From Lysobacterales bacterium (GTDB taxonomy: Bacteria; Pseudomonadota; Gammaproteobacteria; Xanthomonadales; SZUA-36), in the NCBI GenBank assembly GCA_041601535.1, contig JBFIHZ010000001.1:457-64456 (forward strand): a stretch of 64,000 nt of DNA, read 5' to 3'. The stretch's first letter is position 1, and the number at the start of each line of letters is the position of its first letter. Below the pieces are notes generated by a model. It searched no databases. It saw nothing but the letters and a program-made list of their open reading frames with translations, and was not told the origin of the DNA. Below, piece after piece: positions 6,775 through 17,055 of this stretch. The position numbers and the translations under genes are program-made.

Positions 6775-7380
6775 ATGGTCATTTCGCATAAATACCGTTT
6801 TATCTTCATCAAAACCATCAAAACGGCCGGTACCAGTATCGAGGCCTGGTTATCGCCGCGTTGTGGCGCTGAAGATATATTCACGCCGGTTCAGCCGCCG
6901 GTGGAGGGGCATACTCCGAGGAATTTTGGCCGCCTGTATAATCATTTTTCCGCCTGGGGACTGCGTCAGCTGGTTCCGCCGGAAGTCTGGAATGGTTATT
7001 TCAAGTTCTGCGTGGAACGCAATCCCTGGGACAAAACCGTGTCCGACTATGCCATGCAGGCTCACCGCAGCGGCGGTCAGTTAAGCTTTGAGCAATACCT
7101 GCAAGCCGGGCGCTTCTGCAAAAGCTGGGAGCTGTACACCGACACCGATAACCGAACCGTTCTGGTGGACAGGGTACTGCGTTATGAAAACCTCAATGCC
7201 GAACTGGGTGAAGTCTTCCAGAACCTGGGGCTGCCCTGGGAAGGCGAGCTGGGCGTGTATGCCAAGTCCGGCTACCGCCAGAACCGCAAGCCATACCCGG
7301 AATACTACAACGAGCAACAGAAACAGTTGATCGCCCGGGCTTTCAAAGACGAAATTGATGCGTTTGGCTATGCCTTCTGA
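6775..7380 (+). CDS. Sulfotransferase family 2-like protein
   Basis: N-terminal HKYRFIFIKTIKTAGTSIEAWL (5'-phosphosulfate-binding loop), ERNPWDKTVSDY (RxPxDxxxS 3'-phosphate motif) and C-terminal LRYENLNAELGEVFQNLGL motif. Confidence 0.72.
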   Translation: MVISHKYRFIFIKTIKTAGTSIEAWLSPRCGAEDIFTPVQPPVEGHTPRNFGRLYNHFSAWGLRQLVPPEVWNGYFKFCVERNPWDKTVSDYAMQAHRSGGQLSFEQYLQAGRFCKSWELYTDTDNRTVLVDRVLRYENLNAELGEVFQNLGLPWEGELGVYAKSGYRQNRKPYPEYYNEQQKQLIARAFKDEIDAFGYAF

Positions 7381-8194
7381 GTCGCGTGTGCACAAGCCCG
7401 TCATCCGGGTGATACACCATATGGCACGGACCGGCGGCACCCTGATCTGCCGTTGCCTGGCATCCATGGACAACGTGGTGCTGCTCAGTGAGATTCATCC
7501 GCTCGGCTTGAGGATGTTTGACCCATTGCGGCAGGCACATGAGTGGTACGGCCTGCTGACCGAAGCGGATATCGCTTCATTGCGGCAACGCCCGCTGGAG
7601 TTCGCTGAAGCTATCCTGCTGCTCCACCAGCGCTGCAGTGAACAGGGAAAGCACCTGGTTTTGCGCGACTGGAGCCACCTGGATTACACCGGCGTGCCAT
7701 TTGTACGGCCGGCGTTTCGCTCATTGCTGGTGGAAGCCCTGCAGTCGGATTTCAGCGTGTTGCAGATCGCCACCGTGCGCCATCCTCTGGACCAGTGGAT
7801 CAGCCTGACCCGCCAACCGGTTTTCCGTGACAAGCTGCCCATTGCAGACTTTCTTTCAGGCGCATTGCATTTCGCGCGGTTCGCGGTGGACTGCGGCTAT
7901 ATCCGCTACGAGGATTTTACCCGCGAGCACGACACCAGCCTGGTGCAATTGTGTGAAGCGCTGGAGCTTGCCTTTGACCCGCAATACCGTTCCCGCTGGC
8001 GTGATTACACCAATATTACCGGTGATGTGCTGCCGGGAAGGGCTGGCAGTGAAATTACCCCCTTGCCACGGCAGGCAGTTGGCGATGAGGAAACGCAGCG
8101 TGTGATCGAACAAAATGACTATAGGGAGATCCTGCGTTTATTAAACTATTCGGGCCAACAACAGAGTGACCGTGGTGCGCCTGGGACGAATTGA
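7370..8194 (+). CDS. Sulfotransferase-fold protein (intact PAPS-loop-like motifs)
   Basis: IHHMARTGGTLICRCL (P-loop-like), VRHPLDQWISL (RxPxDxxxS) and IRYEDF...LCEALEL. Start is uncertain (TTG 7355, ATG 7358 or ATG 7370). It overlaps the upstream stop at 7378-7380. Confidence 0.55.
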   Translation: MPSESRVHKPVIRVIHHMARTGGTLICRCLASMDNVVLLSEIHPLGLRMFDPLRQAHEWYGLLTEADIASLRQRPLEFAEAILLLHQRCSEQGKHLVLRDWSHLDYTGVPFVRPAFRSLLVEALQSDFSVLQIATVRHPLDQWISLTRQPVFRDKLPIADFLSGALHFARFAVDCGYIRYEDFTREHDTSLVQLCEALELAFDPQYRSRWRDYTNITGDVLPGRAGSEITPLPRQAVGDEETQRVIEQNDYREILRLLNYSGQQQSDRGAPGTN

Positions 8195-8282
8195 TCGGTA
8201 TGCCTTTACGGAAACTTCAGGCAATCTGCAGGGGATACAGCGTCATGCACACCCGGGCCAGGCCGATTGCTCCGGCTGGCGG

Positions 8283-8288
8283 TATAAT
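8283..8288 (+). promoter_or_regulatory. TATAAT hexamer, candidate -10 for the oxygenase-methyltransferase sub-operon
   Basis: Perfect TATAAT 50 nt upstream of ATG 8339, in the only sizeable gap inside the island. No good -35 was seen. Confidence 0.25.
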
Positions 8289-8338
8289 AAACGCCCCGAA
8301 TTGAAAATTGTTGGGGCATTCACTGAGGTTTGACTGAT

Positions 8339-8935
8339 ATGACGGACAATACGGTTGCCGCACTGTTTGGTATTTATGATCGTGCCCTGAGTGCGGAGTT
8401 TTGCCGTGACGTGATCCAGCGGTTTGAGAACGACCCACGCAAAACCCGCGGCAAGGTGGGTGAAGGTGCATACCGCCCCGATTTCAAGGGCACCACGGAA
8501 ATAGATTTTGCGGATATCCGTCAGGGCTGGGAAGACGTGATCAATACCGTCAACCAGAGTCTGATGCTGCACTTGCGGCAATATATGAAGCAGTGGAGTG
8601 AGGCGTTCCAGTCGGTGGAAGTGCATCACGAAGGGTTTCGCATGGCTCGCTACAACCCCGGTGAGCAGTTCAATTGGCATTCGGACAATATCGGTAGTTC
8701 CTTCACCCGGGTGATGACGGTAATGTGGTATCTCAACACCGTGGAAGAAGGCGGTGAGACCGATTACAAGTGGATGGGTCAGGCCATCAAGCCGGTCGAA
8801 GGGCGCATGATGATCTGCCCTGTGGGCTGGCCGTTTTTTCACCGTGGTGCGCCGCCGGTGAGCGGGCCCAAATACACCATCATCACCCAATTGCATCAGA
8901 AGCGCCGGGTGGCGCAGGCCAATACGGGTAGCTGA
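8339..8935 (+). CDS. Fe(II)/2-oxoglutarate-dependent oxygenase, prolyl-4-hydroxylase-like
   Basis: RYNPGEQFNWHSDN (HxD), WYLNTVEEGGETDY and FFHRGAPPVSGPKYTIIT (distal His, basic residue). ATG 8339 with GAGG 9 nt upstream. The ORF track starts at TTG 8330. Confidence 0.72.
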   Translation: MTDNTVAALFGIYDRALSAEFCRDVIQRFENDPRKTRGKVGEGAYRPDFKGTTEIDFADIRQGWEDVINTVNQSLMLHLRQYMKQWSEAFQSVEVHHEGFRMARYNPGEQFNWHSDNIGSSFTRVMTVMWYLNTVEEGGETDYKWMGQAIKPVEGRMMICPVGWPFFHRGAPPVSGPKYTIITQLHQKRRVAQANTGS

Positions 8936-8959
8936 TAGCCACCAGGAGTCAGGATACGC

Positions 8960-9916
8960 ATGACGCAAAGCGGCCACCGGGAATGGGAAAATTACTGGAA
9001 TGAGCCGCGGCTTGCCGCCTGCATGCGTAATGAAGAGGGAAACTACGGCGGCGTGATTGGCCAGGAATGGCACCGGTTTTTCACCTCCCTGCAGAAGCAT
9101 AGCCTGGTGGTGGATCTGGCCACCGGCAACGGTGCCATTGCGCTGTTGGCCCTGCAGGCATCAGACACCGCTGGCCTGGACTTGCAGGTCTGTGGCGTTG
9201 ATGCGGTCGATATTGACCCTGCCCGGGTGCTGCCGCAACTTGCCGGTCAACTGCAAAGAATCAATTTCATAGGCAATACGCAGATGGAGCATTTGCCGTT
9301 TGCAGACCGTTCGGTGCACGCGGTTTCCGGACAGTACGCCCTGGAGTATTCCGACATGGACCTCACCATTGCCGAAATTGCCCGGGTACTGGCGGATTCA
9401 GGCCGGTTGAAATTCATCAGCCATACAACCTCTTCCGCGGTGTACGCAGCCACCCTGAAGCAGCTGCAGGAAATTTCCCAGCTGGAAGGCTGGGACCTGA
9501 CGGGCCGGGTGCAGAAAATGGTGCAAACAGAGCCAGGCACCAGTCCGCATGAACGGGCAAAAAGGGCATTCGGCCGTTGTGCATGCGAAGCCATGCATGC
9601 ACTGGACCGGGCAGAGGGGCAGAACCGTGTATTCCTCACCCAGTTCCTGGCCCGGTTGGGTGAAATTTACCAGCATCGTCACGACCAGCGGAAGAAAAAG
9701 ACTCTGGCTGAACTCAGCGACGTCGATGCTGATTTGAAAGCCCATCAATTACGCCTGGAAAGCCTGCGCAAAGCGGCCCTGAACAAGCCGGCCATCGCCG
9801 CATGTGAACAACTGCTGCAACGTTGTGGATTCTGCCTGCAAGATTCAAGGTCTGTACGCGAGGCGCCGGACCGGCGCCCACTGGGCCATTGTTTTGAAGC
9901 CAGCCTGATCCACTGA
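8960..9916 (+). CDS. Class I SAM-dependent methyltransferase
   Basis: Motif I VVDLATGNGAIA and post-I/II region (FADRSVHAVSGQYALEY). The C-terminal ~150 aa helical extension is of unknown function. Confidence 0.72.
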   Translation: MTQSGHREWENYWNEPRLAACMRNEEGNYGGVIGQEWHRFFTSLQKHSLVVDLATGNGAIALLALQASDTAGLDLQVCGVDAVDIDPARVLPQLAGQLQRINFIGNTQMEHLPFADRSVHAVSGQYALEYSDMDLTIAEIARVLADSGRLKFISHTTSSAVYAATLKQLQEISQLEGWDLTGRVQKMVQTEPGTSPHERAKRAFGRCACEAMHALDRAEGQNRVFLTQFLARLGEIYQHRHDQRKKKTLAELSDVDADLKAHQLRLESLRKAALNKPAIAACEQLLQRCGFCLQDSRSVREAPDRRPLGHCFEASLIH

Positions 9917-9941
9917 GGCTGCTGATGGAACTGCGGTCATC

Positions 9942-11009
9942 GTGAAACTGTCCGCCCCACCGGATTCAAGCCAGTCTGACCTTGTCAGTCCGGACTGGTT
10001 TCTGGCCGGTATCGACCCACCGCATGACCGCTTCCATTTCGCCCGCGTCAGCCAGCAAACCTACCGCGATTCCGCTTTTCTCGATCACCGGATCACACCC
10101 CGGCCAAGTGAGATGCGGTCACTGACCGCTGAGCAACTCTGCCTGCAGTCAGCATCCGCCAGCAATTCTCCGGCCGCATGGATTTTTCACACCGCTTTTT
10201 GCTGTTCTACGCTGTTGGCGTTTTGCCTGGATCAGCCGCAGCACACGCTGGTGCTGCGCGAGCCTGCAGTCGCCTCGTCACTGGCGCAGTGGCTGCGCGA
10301 GCATGGCGAAGAATCCTGGGATGGCGGTGCACGACATGTAATGGCCCTGTTGTCCAGATCGTATGCACAGCAGCAGGTGCTGATCAAGCCGTCCAACTAC
10401 GCCAATGCATTGCTGGGCGGAGTCCTGTCAGGCCGCTGGCTGGATTCCGCCGCCGGGCACGCCCCGCGCTGCCTGTTGATGAGCAGCAACCTCAACAACC
10501 TGGTGGTTTCCGTGCTGAAGAAAAGCACGGAAGCCGCCCGTTTGTTGCCCGGCTTTCTGCAGTCGCTGATGGTGGATAGCGATTACGCTGACAGGCTGAA
10601 CCTGCCCGCCCTGGACCGTCTGGACCTGGCGCAGCAGGCCGTGCTGTTCTGGCATTGCCAGCGCTATCACTTCCAGCAGGTCATGCATGGCCAGCCCTCG
10701 GGCAACTACCAGGCCCTGACCATGGAAGCGTTCCTGGCCTCTCCGGAAGAAACCTTGCACAGCGTGGACACGTTTCTGCATCTGGGCTTGGGACCGGAGC
10801 GCATTCATCAAACCGTTGTGGCTGGTGCGTTTGGCAGGCATTCCAAGGCCGGTGGCACCTACAGTCCGCAGCAGCAACGTGCAGAGGCCCTTCAGGTCAG
10901 TTCGAAATTCGGCGCTGAAATCACCGCGGCCCGGCAGTGGGCCCGGCCATTCTTGCGTGAATTGCCGGTTGAGCCACTGACACCGCAGGAAGACCCATTT
11001 GCCGAATAA
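9942..11009 (+). CDS. Sulfotransferase-fold paralog with degenerate cofactor loops (putative pseudo-enzyme)
   Basis: IFHTAFCCSTLLAFCL aligns with IHHMARTGGTLICRCL of the 7370 gene. LMSSNLNNLVVSVL replaces RxPxDxxxS. It keeps the C-terminal LTMEAFLASPEETLHSVDTFLHLGL motif. GTG start, no clear RBS. Confidence 0.5.
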   Translation: MKLSAPPDSSQSDLVSPDWFLAGIDPPHDRFHFARVSQQTYRDSAFLDHRITPRPSEMRSLTAEQLCLQSASASNSPAAWIFHTAFCCSTLLAFCLDQPQHTLVLREPAVASSLAQWLREHGEESWDGGARHVMALLSRSYAQQQVLIKPSNYANALLGGVLSGRWLDSAAGHAPRCLLMSSNLNNLVVSVLKKSTEAARLLPGFLQSLMVDSDYADRLNLPALDRLDLAQQAVLFWHCQRYHFQQVMHGQPSGNYQALTMEAFLASPEETLHSVDTFLHLGLGPERIHQTVVAGAFGRHSKAGGTYSPQQQRAEALQVSSKFGAEITAARQWARPFLRELPVEPLTPQEDPFAE

Positions 11010-11021
11010 GCCGGGTCTTGC

Positions 11022-11714
11022 TCAGGCTGTGGCTGATGACTCCTGCCAGCGAAAGCTGTAGTTCGCGGCTACGGTGATGCGCGGCAATTTCCCCAGATAG
11101 GGCGTCACCTCATGCTGGATGAAGGAAGGAAACACCAGCAGTTCCCCCGGCTTCATCGGGTAGTTCACTGAGCCGACGTGGTGCGGGCGTTGCCAGTTTG
11201 AATTACCGGCATCACGGTACATGTGCGCGGTGGTGCGCGGATCCTTGAAGTTAAGCGTGCCGCTCAAGGGCAGGTCTGTCGGTGTTTCGCCGGGGTCGAC
11301 CATGTATACCGCCGACCAGGATGCATTGGAATGGATGTGGCTGGATATATAGCCGCCAAAGTGGGTGACGTGATACCAGGCATCCGTTATCACCCGCAAG
11401 CGGCTGCAGTCCTCGGGTGAGTAGCCGTTGGTACTGGCTACCGCGTGCAGCACGCCATGCAGGAAAAACATTTTCAGTTCCTGGATGGCTGGATGAGGGT
11501 CGCGGAACAAGTCAAACGTACTTTCAAATATGCGGACCTGGTTACTCGGAATGTACTCCTTGTTGCGGTACTTCTCGCCTTGCGCCTCCTGTTCCAGGAT
11601 AAGGCCTTTCAGCGCCTCGTTCAGCGCTTTGGGTTGTGGGTAGCTGGCCGAGAATACCGGGGTGGAAAAATCGCCCCAGCTTTTGATTTCAGGTTTTTGT
11701 GTGTTGGCTGGCAT
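11022..11714 (-). CDS. TIGR02466-like putative 2OG-Fe(II) oxygenase family protein
   Basis: GGYISSHIHSNASWSAVYMV and LLVFPSFIQHEVTPY are typical of this family. I prefer ATG 11714 (MPANTQKPEIK, GGGGA 8 nt upstream) over the longer ORF reaching 11807. Confidence 0.68.
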   Translation of the reverse strand: MPANTQKPEIKSWGDFSTPVFSASYPQPKALNEALKGLILEQEAQGEKYRNKEYIPSNQVRIFESTFDLFRDPHPAIQELKMFFLHGVLHAVASTNGYSPEDCSRLRVITDAWYHVTHFGGYISSHIHSNASWSAVYMVDPGETPTDLPLSGTLNFKDPRTTAHMYRDAGNSNWQRPHHVGSVNYPMKPGELLVFPSFIQHEVTPYLGKLPRITVAANYSFRWQESSATA

Positions 11715-11812
11715 ACAGGGTGTCCCCGCGGGTCCAGGTGAAAGAGTCGTGGCTGCCGGCCTGTCTGTCAAGTGGGCAGAACCGCAATCGTGTCCACTGC
11801 CCCGCACAGGGG

Positions 11813-13177
11813 TCAGACCGCCGAGGATTTCAGCTTGCGCGCAATGTCGGCTTTGGCGCTGCGAATCAGCGAATCCCGGTCCAGCGAGTCCTGGATGGCC
11901 TTGGCCACCTCGCGTGGGCCGTTTTTACCCCAGGACTTGCCCCTGGCGAACCAGCTTTGCGCGACCTGGCCGGTCAGGTAGGTTGCGTACCACGCCAGGC
12001 CACCCTGCGCGGACGCCGTTACCACCGTGGATAATCCGGCGCTGGCGGTTTTCATCGCGCTGGACGCCAGATTGATGCCCCAGTAAGCCCCCATCAGGGC
12101 TGCCAGTTGGGCGGAAATGGTCAACACCAGCTTGGCGGCTTCGCGGCGGGACAGGCGAAACCCGTAAACCTCACCGAGGTGAATAACCATGGCCACGTCG
12201 GTGCCGGCCGCTGCGATCAGGTCGGCGATCGGCACCGGGTTGGCGGCCACCACCAGCCCCTTGACCATGCAGTAGTTGCGAATAATGCGTTCGGCCACCG
12301 TTTTACGCGCGGCCACGATGCGGCGGGCGACTTTCTCGTCCAACTCGCTGGCAAATACGGACGCATTGAGCGCCACCAGCGCCTTGCCTTCTTTTTCCAG
12401 CAAGGTCCACAGTACGGAACGCAGTTCACTGACCTCAACCGGGCGGGGCCGGCGGGTTTCACGTTCCGTGCCATCAGGCTCTGCGATGATGACGGTTTCA
12501 TCGCGTGGTTCCGCGGCCGCCGCCAGCACCAGGCTGGCCGGCAGCAAATCAGCTGTGCGCTGGCGCAGGCGTTGCAACAGCAATTGCTGCTCGGAACGGG
12601 TGTAACGGTCCGCTTTATTCAACACCAGGATCACGTTGCGGCCCGCTCTGGCCAATTCATTCAATGCCCGGAATTCCTGTTCGGTAAGGTCTGCCTCGCA
12701 GACAAACAGGATCAGGTCGGCGCGGCGGCTGACCTCCCGAGCGAGTTTCTCGCGCTGCTGTCCATCGAGTTCATCAATGCCGGGTGTGTCAATCAACTGT
12801 ACCCGACCTTGCTGCAGCAGCTGCCACTGGCTGCGGGCTTCCTGTTTGGTTTCGCCATGCAGTGGGCTGGTCTGGAAGCGGTGCTGGCCCAGCAGGGTGT
12901 TCAGCAGGGACGATTTGCCAACGCCAACACGGCCGTATGCTGCAATGTGGATTTCTTCCTGCTGAATCTTATGCGCGATTTGTTCAATCTGCTCAAACTC
13001 TTGCGCCAGTTCAGCGCGCACCGGTGCCGGAATGCTGGAGTCTTCCAGCAGCCTGCCCAGGTTGCTGTAGGCGGCGGCCAGATGGCGTTCCTGTTGCGTG
13101 AGGTCAGGTTTCCCGTTGTCCGTTACGCGTGAGTGCCATTTTTGCAAAACGGACCGCACCGGATTCCAGATTCTCAT
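11813..13177 (-). CDS. GTPase-DUF697 fusion protein (no N-terminal TM)
   Basis: G1 GRVGVGKSS, G3 DTPG, G4 NKAD. C-terminal hydrophobic DUF697-like region (VAANPVPIADLIAAAGTDVAMVIHLGEVYG). ATG 13177 is preceded by GAGGAA with 7-nt spacing. Confidence 0.75.
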   Translation of the reverse strand: MRIWNPVRSVLQKWHSRVTDNGKPDLTQQERHLAAAYSNLGRLLEDSSIPAPVRAELAQEFEQIEQIAHKIQQEEIHIAAYGRVGVGKSSLLNTLLGQHRFQTSPLHGETKQEARSQWQLLQQGRVQLIDTPGIDELDGQQREKLAREVSRRADLILFVCEADLTEQEFRALNELARAGRNVILVLNKADRYTRSEQQLLLQRLRQRTADLLPASLVLAAAAEPRDETVIIAEPDGTERETRRPRPVEVSELRSVLWTLLEKEGKALVALNASVFASELDEKVARRIVAARKTVAERIIRNYCMVKGLVVAANPVPIADLIAAAGTDVAMVIHLGEVYGFRLSRREAAKLVLTISAQLAALMGAYWGINLASSAMKTASAGLSTVVTASAQGGLAWYATYLTGQVAQSWFARGKSWGKNGPREVAKAIQDSLDRDSLIRSAKADIARKLKSSAV

Positions 13178-14564
13178 GTAACAGTTCCTCAAATGCCTGC
13201 GCCGCCGGGAGTGGCCGCAGCTCGCCACGGCTGGCCAGGGTAGCCGCCGCTGCCCGGCCCAGGCTGTCGAATATCATGCCATACGCCACGGCGTGAACCA
13301 TGCCGCCGGTCAGCGTGCCAATGCCGGGAAACGCTTTCAGCGCGTTGCCGGCAATGGCCAGTGTAATGGCGGTCATATTCTTGACCTTGCCACCCGCCAG
13401 CCGCAAAAACGATTCAATCTCCATTTCCTTGACCGGCACGTCGTACAGGCTGGACAGTTCGCGCATCAGTTGCGTGGCCAGTACACCCTGGATCACGAGG
13501 TCGGACCCTGGTGCAACGGCTGCCAGTGCGCCAACCACAGCGCGGCGGGCGTAGCGGCTGACCAGTTCATCGGCCTGCTGGCTGCGATGCCGCGATCGGG
13601 CTGCAAGCAATTTGTCGTTGGCCAGCATCAACACCGCGGTATCCCGCAACGACTCCATCAATTCCCGGTCTCGGTCAAGCAGGCTCTGCACCGCGTGCAG
13701 CAAGGGCAGAATTTCCGCTGGCCGTTGCCGGCTTACCCGTTCTTCAATGCCTTCACCCAGCAGCCGTACCACGTCTTCACGGCCGCCCGCCTGGATGGTT
13801 ACCACGTTCTCGGCAGACAGCCTGGAGTGTTGCTGCAAGCGGTGGCGCAGCTGCTCCAGCTCATCAGCGGTGTAGCGGTCGGATTTGTTCAGTGCCAGCA
13901 CGATCGGCTTGCCCAGTTCCCGCAGCTGGTGCAACTGCCTGGCCTGGCTCGCCGTGAGGTCGCCGTCACACAGAAATATCACCAGATGGGCGCGGCGTGT
14001 TTCCTCCAGCGCCGGCGTTTCTTCGTCAAAATTAAAACCGGGCAGGTCAGCAATAACCACCTGATCCCCGGATGGAGCGGTCCAGCGATAATGCGTTATC
14101 ACCTGCGTGGTACCCGCGCGCGCATCGCAATCTATTTCCGCCTGTGGCAGCAGCGCTTTGACCAGACTGCTCTTGCCGCTACTCACTTCACCGTGGATGG
14201 CGATATACAGTTCGCCACTGGATTTTCGCCGGCGCTGTTCACTGATTTCATCCAGTGCGTGGCTGATATCCACACCCTGGCGCGCTGCTTGCAGCAGATC
14301 GTTCTGCAGGGATTCAGCGTCAGCCGGCGCGGTCGGGGCGGCTGGGCCGGGTTTGCGGGAGGGCCGCAGCCACGACCAGAAGCCGATGGCGGTAACCAGC
14401 GGCAATGCCAGCAGCAGAATGGCATAAGTCCAGCGCAGCCAGGCAGGCGCCTGCTGCAGGTAATTCCACACCGACAAGGCGGTATCGGTGGCCAGCAGGA
14501 ACAGGAACAGCACCACCAGTGCTGCCAGCATAACCACAGCACTGACCAGCCACTTCAGTGGCAT
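13104..14564 (-). CDS. Membrane-anchored GTPase-DUF697 fusion protein
   Basis: Two N-terminal TM helices. G1 GEVSSGKSS, G3 DLPG, G4 NKSD. C-terminal DUF697-like region (AVAPGSDLVIQGVLATQLMRELSSLYD). ATG 14564 has AGGA 6 nt upstream. The ORF extends to GTG 14582. Confidence 0.75.
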   Translation of the reverse strand: MPLKWLVSAVVMLAALVVLFLFLLATDTALSVWNYLQQAPAWLRWTYAILLLALPLVTAIGFWSWLRPSRKPGPAAPTAPADAESLQNDLLQAARQGVDISHALDEISEQRRRKSSGELYIAIHGEVSSGKSSLVKALLPQAEIDCDARAGTTQVITHYRWTAPSGDQVVIADLPGFNFDEETPALEETRRAHLVIFLCDGDLTASQARQLHQLRELGKPIVLALNKSDRYTADELEQLRHRLQQHSRLSAENVVTIQAGGREDVVRLLGEGIEERVSRQRPAEILPLLHAVQSLLDRDRELMESLRDTAVLMLANDKLLAARSRHRSQQADELVSRYARRAVVGALAAVAPGSDLVIQGVLATQLMRELSSLYDVPVKEMEIESFLRLAGGKVKNMTAITLAIAGNALKAFPGIGTLTGGMVHAVAYGMIFDSLGRAAAATLASRGELRPLPAAQAFEELLHENLESGAVRFAKMALTRNGQRET

Positions 14565-14744
14565 GACCCATCCTGCGGCCACTGTGAGGAGGTGCCAGGA
14601 GGCAAGGGGAATGCGTAATTCATGGCCTTATTCTAACAGCCGTTGCATGAAATGCCTTGGGCAGGTACATTGGCAATTACGGGCACCGTGCGCCCTGTTT
14701 CCGTCAGCAGTTCTACGGTTCAATTGCGGTGTCAGGGGGTCACA

Positions 14745-15971
14745 ATGCAGGGCATGAATTCTTCTTTTATGCGGCCCAGGCGGCCGCTTTCCCGTCTTTC
14801 CAGCTCATTGTTTGGAGTGTGCCGCGGCACACCTCCACGGGTTCGCGGCGCCAGCCTGCCCGAGCATTTCAGCTTGTGCCGCCTGGGGCTGGTGCGCCAT
14901 GAATTGCGCACGCCACTGGCAGGCATTATGGGCATGGCCGAGTTGTTGTCCGACTCACCCTTGCGCAGCGAACAGGCTGCCTGGCTGGGCGCCCTGCAGC
15001 AATCCGGACGACAGTTGCAGTGTTTGCTCGAGCGGGTCAGCCGCTCAGGCCTGGCCCCGGTAATGCCGGCCGGACTGAGGCAGCATTCGTTTGATGGCCA
15101 CCGGTTTCTTGAGCAGGTGATGCTGTCACACTGGCCAGAGGCAAAGCGCAAACACCTCGGGCTGTACCTTGAAGTGGACCAGGCGTTACCCACGCAGTGG
15201 CATAGCCATGCGCCGACCTTGCGGCAATTACTGGACAACCTGATCGCCAACAGTCTGAAGTTTACCCAGGCAGGCCATGTGCTGCTCCGTGCGCGATTGC
15301 AAAGACACGCTAGCGCCGCAGGCCCGGCCTTGTCGCTCTGCGTGGAAGATACCGGGGTGGGGTTTTGTGAACAGGCGGACCAGTCGGTTTACGCCGTGCG
15401 TGAACAGGGGCAATGCACCCCGCAGATGGCCATCAGTGGGCGCGGCATGGGATTGCAGATCTGCCGCTACAACACGCAGTTGCTGAAAGGCCAGTTGAGC
15501 AACCAGTCCGTACCGGGCGATGGCAGCCGCTTCGAACTGGTATTGCCGGAGGTGCTCAGGCAACAAGCCAGTGGCATCAGGCAGCGGCCGGCGCTGCTGG
15601 GTACCCTGGTTTGCCTGCTGGGTCTGTCCGGGCCTTTGCGCGCTGTGGTTGAGCACCTGTTGGGTCGACTTGGCATCGGTATTGTGCGGATGCCATCGCA
15701 GCACATGGATCGCTTGCCTGAGGGGGTACAGGTGGTGATCTGTGACCCCGTGCATGCCCGGCGCCTGCGCTGGCTGCCCGGTTTGCATCAGTGGTGCGCG
15801 CAAGCCATGCTGCTGTCGCCGGATTATCAGGTGTCCGATAGTGGAGCGCCAGGCCCACCCAGGCTGGCCTGTACCGCCTTGCCTCAACCAGTGATCCGCT
15901 CCAACCTGGAGCCTTTGCTGTTACAAGTGGCACTGCAGCGCGCGCTGCAGGCCGGAAAAGGGCTGGAATGA
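14745..15971 (+). CDS. Soluble sensor histidine kinase with a C-terminal receiver-like (degenerate) region
   Basis: H-box LVRHELRTPLAGIMGMAELL, N-box DNLIANSLKFT, G1 VEDTGVGF, G2 GRGMGLQICR. No TM segment. ATG 14745 with AGGGGG upstream. Confidence 0.72.
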   Translation: MQGMNSSFMRPRRPLSRLSSSLFGVCRGTPPRVRGASLPEHFSLCRLGLVRHELRTPLAGIMGMAELLSDSPLRSEQAAWLGALQQSGRQLQCLLERVSRSGLAPVMPAGLRQHSFDGHRFLEQVMLSHWPEAKRKHLGLYLEVDQALPTQWHSHAPTLRQLLDNLIANSLKFTQAGHVLLRARLQRHASAAGPALSLCVEDTGVGFCEQADQSVYAVREQGQCTPQMAISGRGMGLQICRYNTQLLKGQLSNQSVPGDGSRFELVLPEVLRQQASGIRQRPALLGTLVCLLGLSGPLRAVVEHLLGRLGIGIVRMPSQHMDRLPEGVQVVICDPVHARRLRWLPGLHQWCAQAMLLSPDYQVSDSGAPGPPRLACTALPQPVIRSNLEPLLLQVALQRALQAGKGLE

Positions 15972-15984
15972 CCTGCCGCCGGCC

Positions 15985-17055
15985 TCAATCACCGGCCTGG
16001 TGGAAGGCCGGGCTGTACTCCGCCACTGCACGGATAAGACCATCCAGGTGGTCGGGATTGACATCAGGTGTAATGCCGTGGCCCAGGTTGAACACATGGC
16101 CCGGGCCTTTGCCAAAACTGTCCAGCACCTGTTCGGCCTCATGGCGGATCACTTGCGGGCTGGCCAACAGGATGGCCGGGTCCAGGTTACCCTGCAGCGC
16201 TACCCGATCGCCCACGCGGGCCCGGGCTTCGGCCAGGGAGATGGTCCAGTCAACACCCAGCGCGTCGCAGCCGGTATCTGCCTGCGCTTCCAGGTGGGCA
16301 TTACAGTTTTTGCAGAACAGGATGACCGGCACCGGGTTGCCATCGTGCTGACGTTCCAGCCCTTCGACGATACGTGCCAGGTACTGCAGCGAGAAGGCCT
16401 GGTAGGCCGGGGGCGACAGCACGCCACCCCAGGTATCGAACAGTTGCACCGCCTGGGCACCCGCGCGAATCTGCGCATTCAGGTAAGCGGTTACCGCGTC
16501 GGCCAAGCGGCCCAGCAGATCATGTGCCAGCGCCGGCTCGTTGTAGATCATCTGTTTGACGAGGTTAAACGTTTTGCTTGAACCCCCTTCCACCATGTAG
16601 GTGGCCAGGGTCCATGGGCTGCCGCTGAACCCGATCAGCGGCACCCGGCCATCGAGTTCCCGGCGTGTGACACTGATGGCATCCATGACGTACCCCAGTG
16701 AATCGGCGATGTCCAGTTTTGGCAGTTGTTTCACCTGTTCAGCGGAGCGGATCGGGCGCTCAAACTTGGGGCCTTCACCTTCTGAAAAGTACAGGCCCAG
16801 GCCCATCGCATCGGGAATGGTAAGAATATCCGAGAAAATGATGGCGGCGTCCAGGTCAAATCGTCTCAGCGGTTGCAGCGTCACTTCGCAGGCCAGTTCC
16901 GGCGTACGGCACAGGTTCATAAAACTCCCGGCCTGCGCGCGGGTGTTGAGGTATTCGGGCAGGTAGCGGCCGGCCTGGCGCATGATCCACACCGGGGTGC
17001 GGTCCACCGGCTGGCGCAGCAGGGCGCGAATGATTCGGTCGTTTTTCAGGGTCAT
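15985..17055 (-). CDS. hemE: Uroporphyrinogen decarboxylase
   Basis: [35 protein letters not shown] and full-length similarity to HemE. Confidence 0.95.

Follow-up and report, generated by a model that had tools for sequence, protein, structure and literature searches.

In Escherichia coli, the DUF697 (PF05128) protein YcjF is encoded beside YcjX, a GTP-binding protein of the DUF463 family. The ycjX and ycjF genes are almost always adjacent, ycjX carries a sigma-32 promoter, and the two often lie near the psp operon (PMC3041696). Both belong to the E. coli heat-shock regulon, and their own function is not established. Bacterial dynamin-like proteins offer a further precedent for GTPases encoded in twos: most of their genes are paired in operons, and the products are probably heterodimers (PMC6104087; PMC4159319). 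Proteins that join a GTPase domain and DUF697 in one chain are known from the slr1306 family (NF049994) and from other single genes of cyanobacteria and planctomycetes combining MMR_HSR1 with DUF697. A literature search found no published function for slr1306-type or other DUF697 GTPases, with DUF697 mentioned only in passing, which agrees with the view of a first-pass annotation of the DNA studied here. That DNA is a 64,000-nucleotide (nt) stretch from a Lysobacterales bacterium (GenBank assembly GCA_041601535.1, contig JBFIHZ010000001.1, positions 457 to 64,456), hereafter the window. Between positions 11,813 and 14,564 it carries two adjoining minus-strand genes, A and B, each encoding a GTPase domain fused to DUF697. 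The two are paralogous, strictly paired and overlapping, and only the product of A has an N-terminal membrane anchor. We propose that together they may form a membrane-bound heterodimeric GTPase.

Gene A (13104..14564, minus strand) encodes a protein of 486 amino acids (aa), as defined by its open reading frame (ORF), a conserved start, Pfam matches and an AlphaFold2 model. The frame runs from an ATG at 14564 to a stop at 13104, and we place the start at this ATG because the N-terminus MPLRLLVS is common to 39 homologues. Two hydrophobic segments near the N-terminus (Kyte-Doolittle maxima 3.14 and 2.05) coincide with helices at aa 3-25 and 41-65 of the model, giving a predicted two-helix membrane hairpin over aa 3-66 (14367..14558). 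Ten of the 21 positions in the loop between these helices are invariant among 40 homologues, so the hairpin is probably more than a passive anchor. Directly after the second helix come the basic residues of an RPSRKPG stretch, which by the positive-inside rule would place the GTPase domain of protein A on the cytoplasmic side.

The GTPase domain of protein A spans aa 117-282 (13719..14216; Pfam and NCBIfam matches) and contains the motifs G1 (GEVSSGKSS, aa 125-133), G3 (DLPG, aa 173-176) and G4 (NKSD, aa 226-229). It scores 53.4 bits against Pfam MMR_HSR1 (PF01926; cutoff 21.9), a family that all 40 A-type homologues match. The DUF697 match covers aa 323-443 (13236..13598), and the conserved domain reaches to about aa 470. 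Here the score is 26.1 bits, 1.6 below the cutoff of 27.7. Nevertheless, all 40 A-type homologues match DUF697 at E<=1e-3 (best 9e-9), and the family profiles of A and B align with 99.95% probability. On these two grounds the C-terminal domain of protein A appears to be a diverged DUF697, a borderline but supported assignment. The AlphaFold2 model has a mean predicted local distance difference test (pLDDT) score of 69.8.

Gene B (11813..13177, minus strand) encodes 454 aa, defined by the same kinds of evidence. Its start is placed at the ATG at 13177 because the N-terminus MxIWNxVxSxLxxW is common to 35 homologues; alternative starts are a GTG at 13228 in the ORF list and a GTG at 13159 in the public gene call. 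The GTPase domain (aa 73-246, 12440..12961; Pfam and NCBIfam) carries G1 GRVGVGKSS, G3 DTPG and G4 NKAD, and scores 70.4 bits against MMR_HSR1. DUF697 occupies aa 276-432 (11882..12352) at 105.8 bits and E=2.6e-30. The Kyte-Doolittle profile has no strongly hydrophobic N-terminal segment in protein B, and the mean pLDDT of its model is 74.2. The first-pass annotation had thus read the Era/EngA-like GTPase domains and their motifs correctly in both genes. Its assignment of DUF697 to both C-termini is clear for B and, for A, just under the cutoff with the homologues in support.

Sequence comparison confirms that A and B are paralogues, as had been proposed: they share 28% identity over 267 aa (BLASTP E=1e-22), and the 99.95% profile alignment begins ahead of the G domain and takes in the first half of DUF697. 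Across 36 B-type and 40 A-type sequences, G1 (GxxxxGKS), the G2 threonine, G3 (DxxG) and G4 (NKxD) are invariant, so neither copy looks dead. The residue after DxxG is hydrophobic (phenylalanine in A, isoleucine in B), leaving no catalytic glutamine at that position. Within the TRAFAC class, the Era/Der/MnmE/FeoB/Toc/septin/dynamin part typically has a hydrophobic residue here. Many Era, Der, MnmE, FeoB, Toc34, septin and dynamin-like proteins hydrolyse GTP when two G domains pair.

Beyond the G domain, both AlphaFold2 models have a single helix some 60 residues long and a bundle of four to five helices. In both proteins conservation is highest in DUF697, not in the GTPase domain: the mean frequency of the top residue is 0.86-0.90 in DUF697 (0.90 in A) versus 0.74-0.76 in the G domains. 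The DUF697 helices are rich in glycine, alanine and serine and moderately hydrophobic (Kyte-Doolittle 1.2-1.56 over the DUF697 regions). The C-terminal domain that the first-pass annotation called hydrophobic is therefore so in moderation, with maxima of 1.55-1.56, and by this measure is not a classical transmembrane domain in either protein. A sequence search for solved structures found none of DUF697, the best match being an esterase at E=0.3.

How do A and B relate to YcjF? E. coli YcjF matches DUF697 at residues 183-341 (E=1e-55), bearing out the earlier statement that this is the YcjF domain. It has membrane helices at residues 70-88 and 98-123, forming a hairpin (70-123), and a hydrophobic segment at 210-236 inside DUF697 that aligns with an NP/SPxxxxD motif common to A and B (NPxPxxD...YG in B). 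YcjF is thus a hairpin followed by DUF697, A is a hairpin, a GTPase and DUF697, and B is a GTPase and DUF697. Set against this layout, A looks like YcjF with a GTPase inserted. Direct alignments of the A and B families to the YcjF sequence are not significant (E=0.028 and 0.14). Because these alignments are of low diversity and give no direct YcjF match, it is the shared Pfam model that connects A and B with YcjF. Against TIGR01620, which describes YcjF proper (UPF0283), B scores 22.3 bits versus a cutoff of 160 and A is not listed. By their profile scores, then, A and B are not YcjF proper, and the presence of a GTPase makes their architecture different.

The resemblance extends to the pair as a whole. 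Like A and B, YcjX and YcjF bring a GTP-binding protein together with a DUF697 protein through adjoining genes, and ycjX and ycjF also overlap in E. coli (5512-5515 of locus L087). Unlike YcjX/YcjF, the pair has its GTPase fused into the DUF697 protein, the fusion is duplicated, and the GTPase belongs to MMR_HSR1 rather than DUF463. The first-pass annotation had set this fusion beside YcjX/YcjF. Both domains do lie in one protein, but the GTPase is unrelated in sequence to YcjX, and the comparison holds as an analogy. We considered a homologous gene fusion of YcjX with YcjF and rejected it for the same reason; the parallel is one of design only.

A and B are conserved as a unit. In a pattern scan of 185,579 species, each represented by a single genome, 452 relatives of B were confirmed, and we examined the best 80 of these (loci L001-L080), comprising a closer group of 45 and a more distant group of 35. 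All 80 loci are in Gammaproteobacteria, mostly uncultured Lysobacterales/Xanthomonadales, Wenzhouxiangellaceae, Chromatiales, Ectothiorhodospiraceae and Thiotrichales, from marine and soil settings; a cultured carrier is Elongatibacter sediminis. In 76 of them an A-type gene stands directly upstream of B on the same strand, and in the remaining four the contig ends within ~650 nt of B. The asymmetry in anchoring is equally regular: one or two hydrophobic segments are present in all 68 A proteins from related loci and in none of 55 B proteins, in line with the earlier reading that only the upstream copy has an N-terminal two-helix anchor. Metagenomes hold thousands of close relatives of both proteins, at 60-73% identity. 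The window sequence itself, which derives from a marine metagenome, was found only in DNA runs from marine, estuary and sediment metagenomes and in one run from a coded organism.

The junction between the genes is conserved as well. The two had been described as consecutive; they are indeed adjacent, but they overlap by 74 nt (13104-13177) in different frames. Together with the ribosome-binding site of B, the junction occupies 13104..13190 on the minus strand, and that site, GAGGA (13190-13186), lies inside invariant F-E-E codons of A. Among 55 pairs with both ends placed, 54 overlap by 44-104 nt (median 77), always by a length of 2 mod 3; the exception, L052, has a 551-nt gap instead. In the same proportion (54/55), the ATG of B falls inside conserved His/Asn-Glu/Asp codons of A. 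The codons always end in T, which suggests selection for the B start codon itself. The overlap is unusually long and conserved, and it codes for conserved residues in both frames: ...FEELLHExLESGAVRFAK in A and MxIWNxVxSxLxxW in B. An A-B fusion made by frameshifting was considered and set aside: every locus has B in frame +1 with respect to A, no fused homologue was seen, and two long representatives (P0241 and P0244) have unrelated N-terminal extensions.

Clustering of flanking ORFs found no gene family common to the closer 45 and the more distant 35 loci. A-B is therefore a self-contained two-gene module. In a subset of the distant loci a small MGMT-like gene follows B and a sodium:solute symporter gene precedes A, and we judge both to be unrelated to the pair.

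Searching exhaustively with B placed the pair in a wider family. Counting clusters as 50% identity representatives, 224 were found at E<=1e-30 and 1,391 at E<=1e-10. Among the best 150 are unanchored forms (430-480 aa) and longer ones (510-540 aa) that have two hydrophobic helices at the N-terminus, one anchored clade being planctomycetal. In the planctomycete Anatilimnocola floriformis a gene of the B type, with a B-profile score of 323 bits, comes after the anchored gene. Two metagenome contigs carry tandem copies, two on L085 and three on L086. In Lignipirellula cremea (L081), by contrast, the gene is single and the next gene is unrelated, and a cyanobacterium-like contig (L083) likewise has a single copy. 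From these cases, tandem paralogues recur in the superfamily and are not universal. The paralogues of L085 and of L086 (an ENA metagenome contig of 2287 nt) include no anchored copy, and the second L085 gene is a shortened form of 371 aa.

A neighbour-joining tree groups B-type proteins with unanchored relatives from other phyla and sets A-type proteins apart on a long branch of their own, but its resolution is too coarse for dating the duplication. The slr1306 family and the other single-gene MMR_HSR1-DUF697 proteins of cyanobacteria and planctomycetes share the order of GTPase, helix and DUF697 seen in A and B. Unlike the pair, at least some slr1306-type relatives stand alone (L081, L083). 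Against NF049994, B scores 156 bits and A 84.9 bits over ~300 positions, far below the cutoff of 490, and the two therefore belong to sister groups of the slr1306 family. The architecture is already catalogued under names such as "GTP-binding protein", "DUF697 domain-containing protein" and "YcjF family protein". As far as we found, the strict pairing of an anchored with an unanchored copy and the long conserved overlap have not been described.

Combining these observations, we propose, with a probability of about 0.45, that the two genes form a self-contained operon whose products make up a heterodimeric GTPase, bound to the membrane and acting on it through DUF697. Protein A would sit in the inner membrane by its N-terminal hairpin, with its GTPase domain, long helix and DUF697 facing the cytoplasm. 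Protein B would be translated from the mRNA of A, where its start codon and ribosome-binding site fall within the last part of gene A, and would be recruited to A through contacts of the G domains, the DUF697 domains or both. We suggest that the G domains of the two proteins come together when GTP is bound, because both lack the catalytic glutamine after DxxG, as do GTPases of which many hydrolyse GTP on pairing. The long helices could then transmit the GTP cycle to both DUF697 domains, moderately hydrophobic bundles that appear homologous to the part of E. coli YcjF embedded in the membrane. In this way the cycle could alter how these domains are seated in the cytoplasmic face of the membrane or assemble on it. 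By analogy with the YcjX/YcjF pair of the E. coli heat-shock regulon, a physiological role in membrane maintenance or stress response is plausible.

Several results weigh against this proposal. With an hhalign probability of 0.6%, the G domain of the pair has no detectable relation to YcjX. In 66 loci the region upstream of gene A gave no promoter of the sigma-32 or sigma-E type, and the heat-shock parallel with ycjXF is therefore without direct support at gene A. The DUF697 helices are moderately hydrophobic (maximum 1.55), so that a soluble bundle binding a partner other than lipid is conceivable, and the A and B models, at pLDDT 70-74, have low-confidence loops inside this domain. Finally, the single genes of Lignipirellula (L081) and the cyanobacterium-like contig (L083) indicate that proteins of the wider family can apparently function with no partner gene next to theirs.

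The first-pass annotation had likened the pair to paired bacterial dynamin-like proteins. In its full form this would make A and B a short dynamin-like pair that polymerises on membranes and tethers, fuses or cuts them, as has been proposed for Campylobacter DLP1/DLP2, Bacillus DynA, IniA/IniC and LeoABC. Operon pairing is, as noted, usual for such genes, BDLP1/2 included, both systems consist of two tandem paralogous GTPases, and the G1 motif of A is of the GxxSxGKSS type. Foldseek returned the Campylobacter dynamin-like protein pair (5owv), mitofusin 1, IRG proteins, Toc34, LeoA and the bacterial dynamin-like protein BDLP at the top for B; for A it returned Era first, then IRG proteins and BDLP. 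Moreover, the PADLOC LeoA and LeoBC profiles match both proteins (E=1e-13 to 1e-17), and Pfam Dynamin_N matches B at 42.6 bits. All of these matches, however, are confined to the G domain. The structural matches cover the GTPase domain only, with template-modelling (TM) scores of 0.19-0.31 and root-mean-square deviations above 20 Å over long alignments; the LeoA/LeoBC matches cover roughly the first 200 of 559-601 profile positions; and Dynamin_N is limited to residues 139-205 of B, while A scores 23.2 bits, below the cutoff of 27. The NCBIfam model for LeoA/HP0731 (DLP_LeoA_gen) gives 19-22 bits versus a cutoff of 325 and the DynA model 33 versus 1600, and the nearest solved structures by sequence are Der and Era, not dynamins. 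At 454-486 aa, A and B are also much shorter than dynamin-like proteins and lack a paddle. In models of moderate confidence they have one long helix and would lack the neck/trunk bundle made by helices flanking the G domain. Their membrane module is instead DUF697 with, in A, a transmembrane hairpin, unlike that of dynamin-like proteins. Judged by these profiles, A and B are not members of the dynamin-like family. The analogy, which rests on pairing and on GTPase-domain likeness with TM-scores of 0.25-0.31, is a tentative one, and we regard dynamin-like action as unlikely.

The same restriction to the G domain limits the other GTPase families that might be invoked. A FeoB-like transporter or channel, with DUF697 as the pore and the G domain as its gate, would fit the order of a G domain N-terminal to a hydrophobic domain, the Gly/Ala/Ser-rich DUF697 helices and a FeoB_N match of 46.4 bits in B, above the cutoff. 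Yet the maximum hydrophobicity of B (1.55) is below that of classical transmembrane helices, A has only its two N-terminal helices, the FeoB membrane domain is much larger and unrelated to DUF697, and no transport-related gene is a conserved neighbour; we think such a channel quite improbable. The broader comparison agrees: FeoB, Toc34/Toc159 and HydF are TRAFAC GTPases of the same broad G-domain class, with a hydrophobic residue after DxxG, and B also matches AIG1 (40 bits) and HydF (76 bits), but the C-terminal domains of FeoB, Toc34/Toc159 and HydF are unrelated to those of A and B and no equivalog cutoff is reached. Ribosome-associated GTPases of the Era/Der type, held at the membrane for ribosome assembly or membrane-bound translation, are suggested by Der/EngA (E=4.5e-17) and Era being the solved structures closest in sequence, by Era heading the Foldseek matches of A and by the Pfam name of MMR_HSR1, "50S ribosome-binding GTPase". 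This likeness too stops at the G domain, where the Era, Der, YihA, HflX and MnmE equivalogs score 41-75 bits versus cutoffs of 116-380. A and B have no KH or other RNA-binding domain, and their best conserved part is DUF697, not the G domain, making a ribosomal role very unlikely. An anti-phage or conflict system of two GTPases, like the DO-GTPase systems or LeoABC, would also have precedent, since DO-GTPases often occur as two paralogous copies, some with N-terminal transmembrane segments (PMC7159879), and the PADLOC LeoA/LeoBC profiles match both proteins. But DO-GTPase systems are characterised by a DO-GTPase domain, a GAP1 protein and variable effector genes (PMC7159879). No DO-GTPase Pfam family was found at E<=0.01 in A, B or the A-type homologues, and the module has only two genes, with no GAP1-like or variable effector gene. 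PADLOC gave only the LeoA/LeoBC matches over the G domain and no full-length defence protein, and within each clade the neighbours are constant housekeeping genes and inheritance is vertical. A defence function therefore seems highly improbable.

The surroundings of the pair bear on its inheritance. In the closer clade the gene order is aroK-aroB-hemE-(divergent histidine kinase)-A-B, and the pair keeps this fixed place by hemE, aroB and aroK in ~40 species, with 57-73% identity across them. Such a fixed place at this level of identity points to vertical inheritance rather than a mobile defence island. The gene divergent from A (14745-15971, plus strand), which the first-pass annotation had called an orphan kinase, encodes a histidine kinase with HisKA and HATPase_c domains. 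It keeps its position in only ~25 loci of the closest clade. About 50 residues precede its H-box, with no recognisable sensor or transmembrane region, and its C-terminal ~130 residues, for which Pfam gave no match, may represent a receiver domain that has degenerated. The kinase gene has no adjoining gene for a response regulator.

On the other side, the gene after B (11022-11714, minus strand) encodes a TIGR02466-type 2-oxoglutarate (2OG)-Fe(II) oxygenase (68.5 bits, cutoff 62.5). The family assignment and the 98-nt gap to B had been noted before; the assignment stands, and so does the gap, provided that the gene starts at the ATG at 11714. As a neighbour of the pair, however, the gene is lineage-specific: it follows B on the same strand in six loci, lies on the opposite strand in three and is absent elsewhere, and in 27 of the closer loci its place after B is taken by a convergent gene. 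From this variable position we conclude that the TIGR02466 gene and its own neighbours are a separate cluster outside the pair system; a functional link to the pair is not supported. That cluster adjoins the pair and comprises five genes (7355-11714), which, besides the TIGR02466 gene, encode a 355-aa protein with no Pfam match (9942-11009, plus strand), a class I methyltransferase (8960-9916), a second 2OG-Fe(II) oxygenase (8330-8935) and a weakly sulfotransferase-like protein (7355-8194). All of its genes but the methyltransferase recur together in five other loci (L004, L009, L011, L013 and L039). This recurrence points to a small modification pathway that has nothing to do with the GTPase pair.

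Upstream of gene A, conservation marks a candidate extended -10 promoter element, TGTTAGAAT (14630..14638, minus strand). The motif TGnTAGAAT at this site is found in the window and in L007, L009, L011 and L013, and most other close loci have TTGATATTCT at the equivalent place. Both resemble extended -10 elements, which hints weakly at a promoter. A consensus promoter scan of the window did not report the candidate and found no convincing promoter or terminator near the pair. In the same 66 loci, sigma-32, sigma-E, sigma-54 and sigma-70 consensus patterns upstream of gene A gave nothing above shuffled background, and no known RNA family was found in 11000-16000.

The leader of the divergent kinase contains a conserved structured element (14681-14735, plus strand) for which Rfam gave no match. 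Within it, CACCGCG pairs with a downstream CGCGGTG and encloses a hairpin whose stem sequence varies between loci, and 23 related loci carry near-identical copies of the 15-mer GGGCACCGCGCGCCC, from which the window differs at one position. The Shine-Dalgarno sequence and ATG of the kinase (start at 14745) come after the stem.

We also offer a wider reading of the pair, tentatively, doubting that it is right in full. DUF697 may do the work in GTP-driven membrane machines of a class distinct from dynamins and so far unrecognised. Ancestrally such a machine would have been a heterodimer, with one hairpin-anchored and one peripheral GTPase-DUF697 protein, a form that would persist in Gammaproteobacteria and Planctomycetota. 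The enterobacterial heat-shock pair YcjX/YcjF would be a version with a different, separate GTPase, and the invariant loop of A, which would be periplasmic, might sense the state of the envelope.

DUF697 and YcjX/YcjF, a heat-shock-regulated pair often found beside the phage-shock operon, lack an established function. In A and B the fused, duplicated form makes the link between GTP hydrolysis and DUF697 explicit, in a compact two-protein system that has a cultured carrier in Elongatibacter sediminis. Should the heterodimer reading be false, A and B would be an ordinary conserved pair of uncharacterised genes. If they are indeed a membrane-active heterodimer, they would represent a second, much smaller type of paired membrane GTPase beside the dynamin-like proteins.

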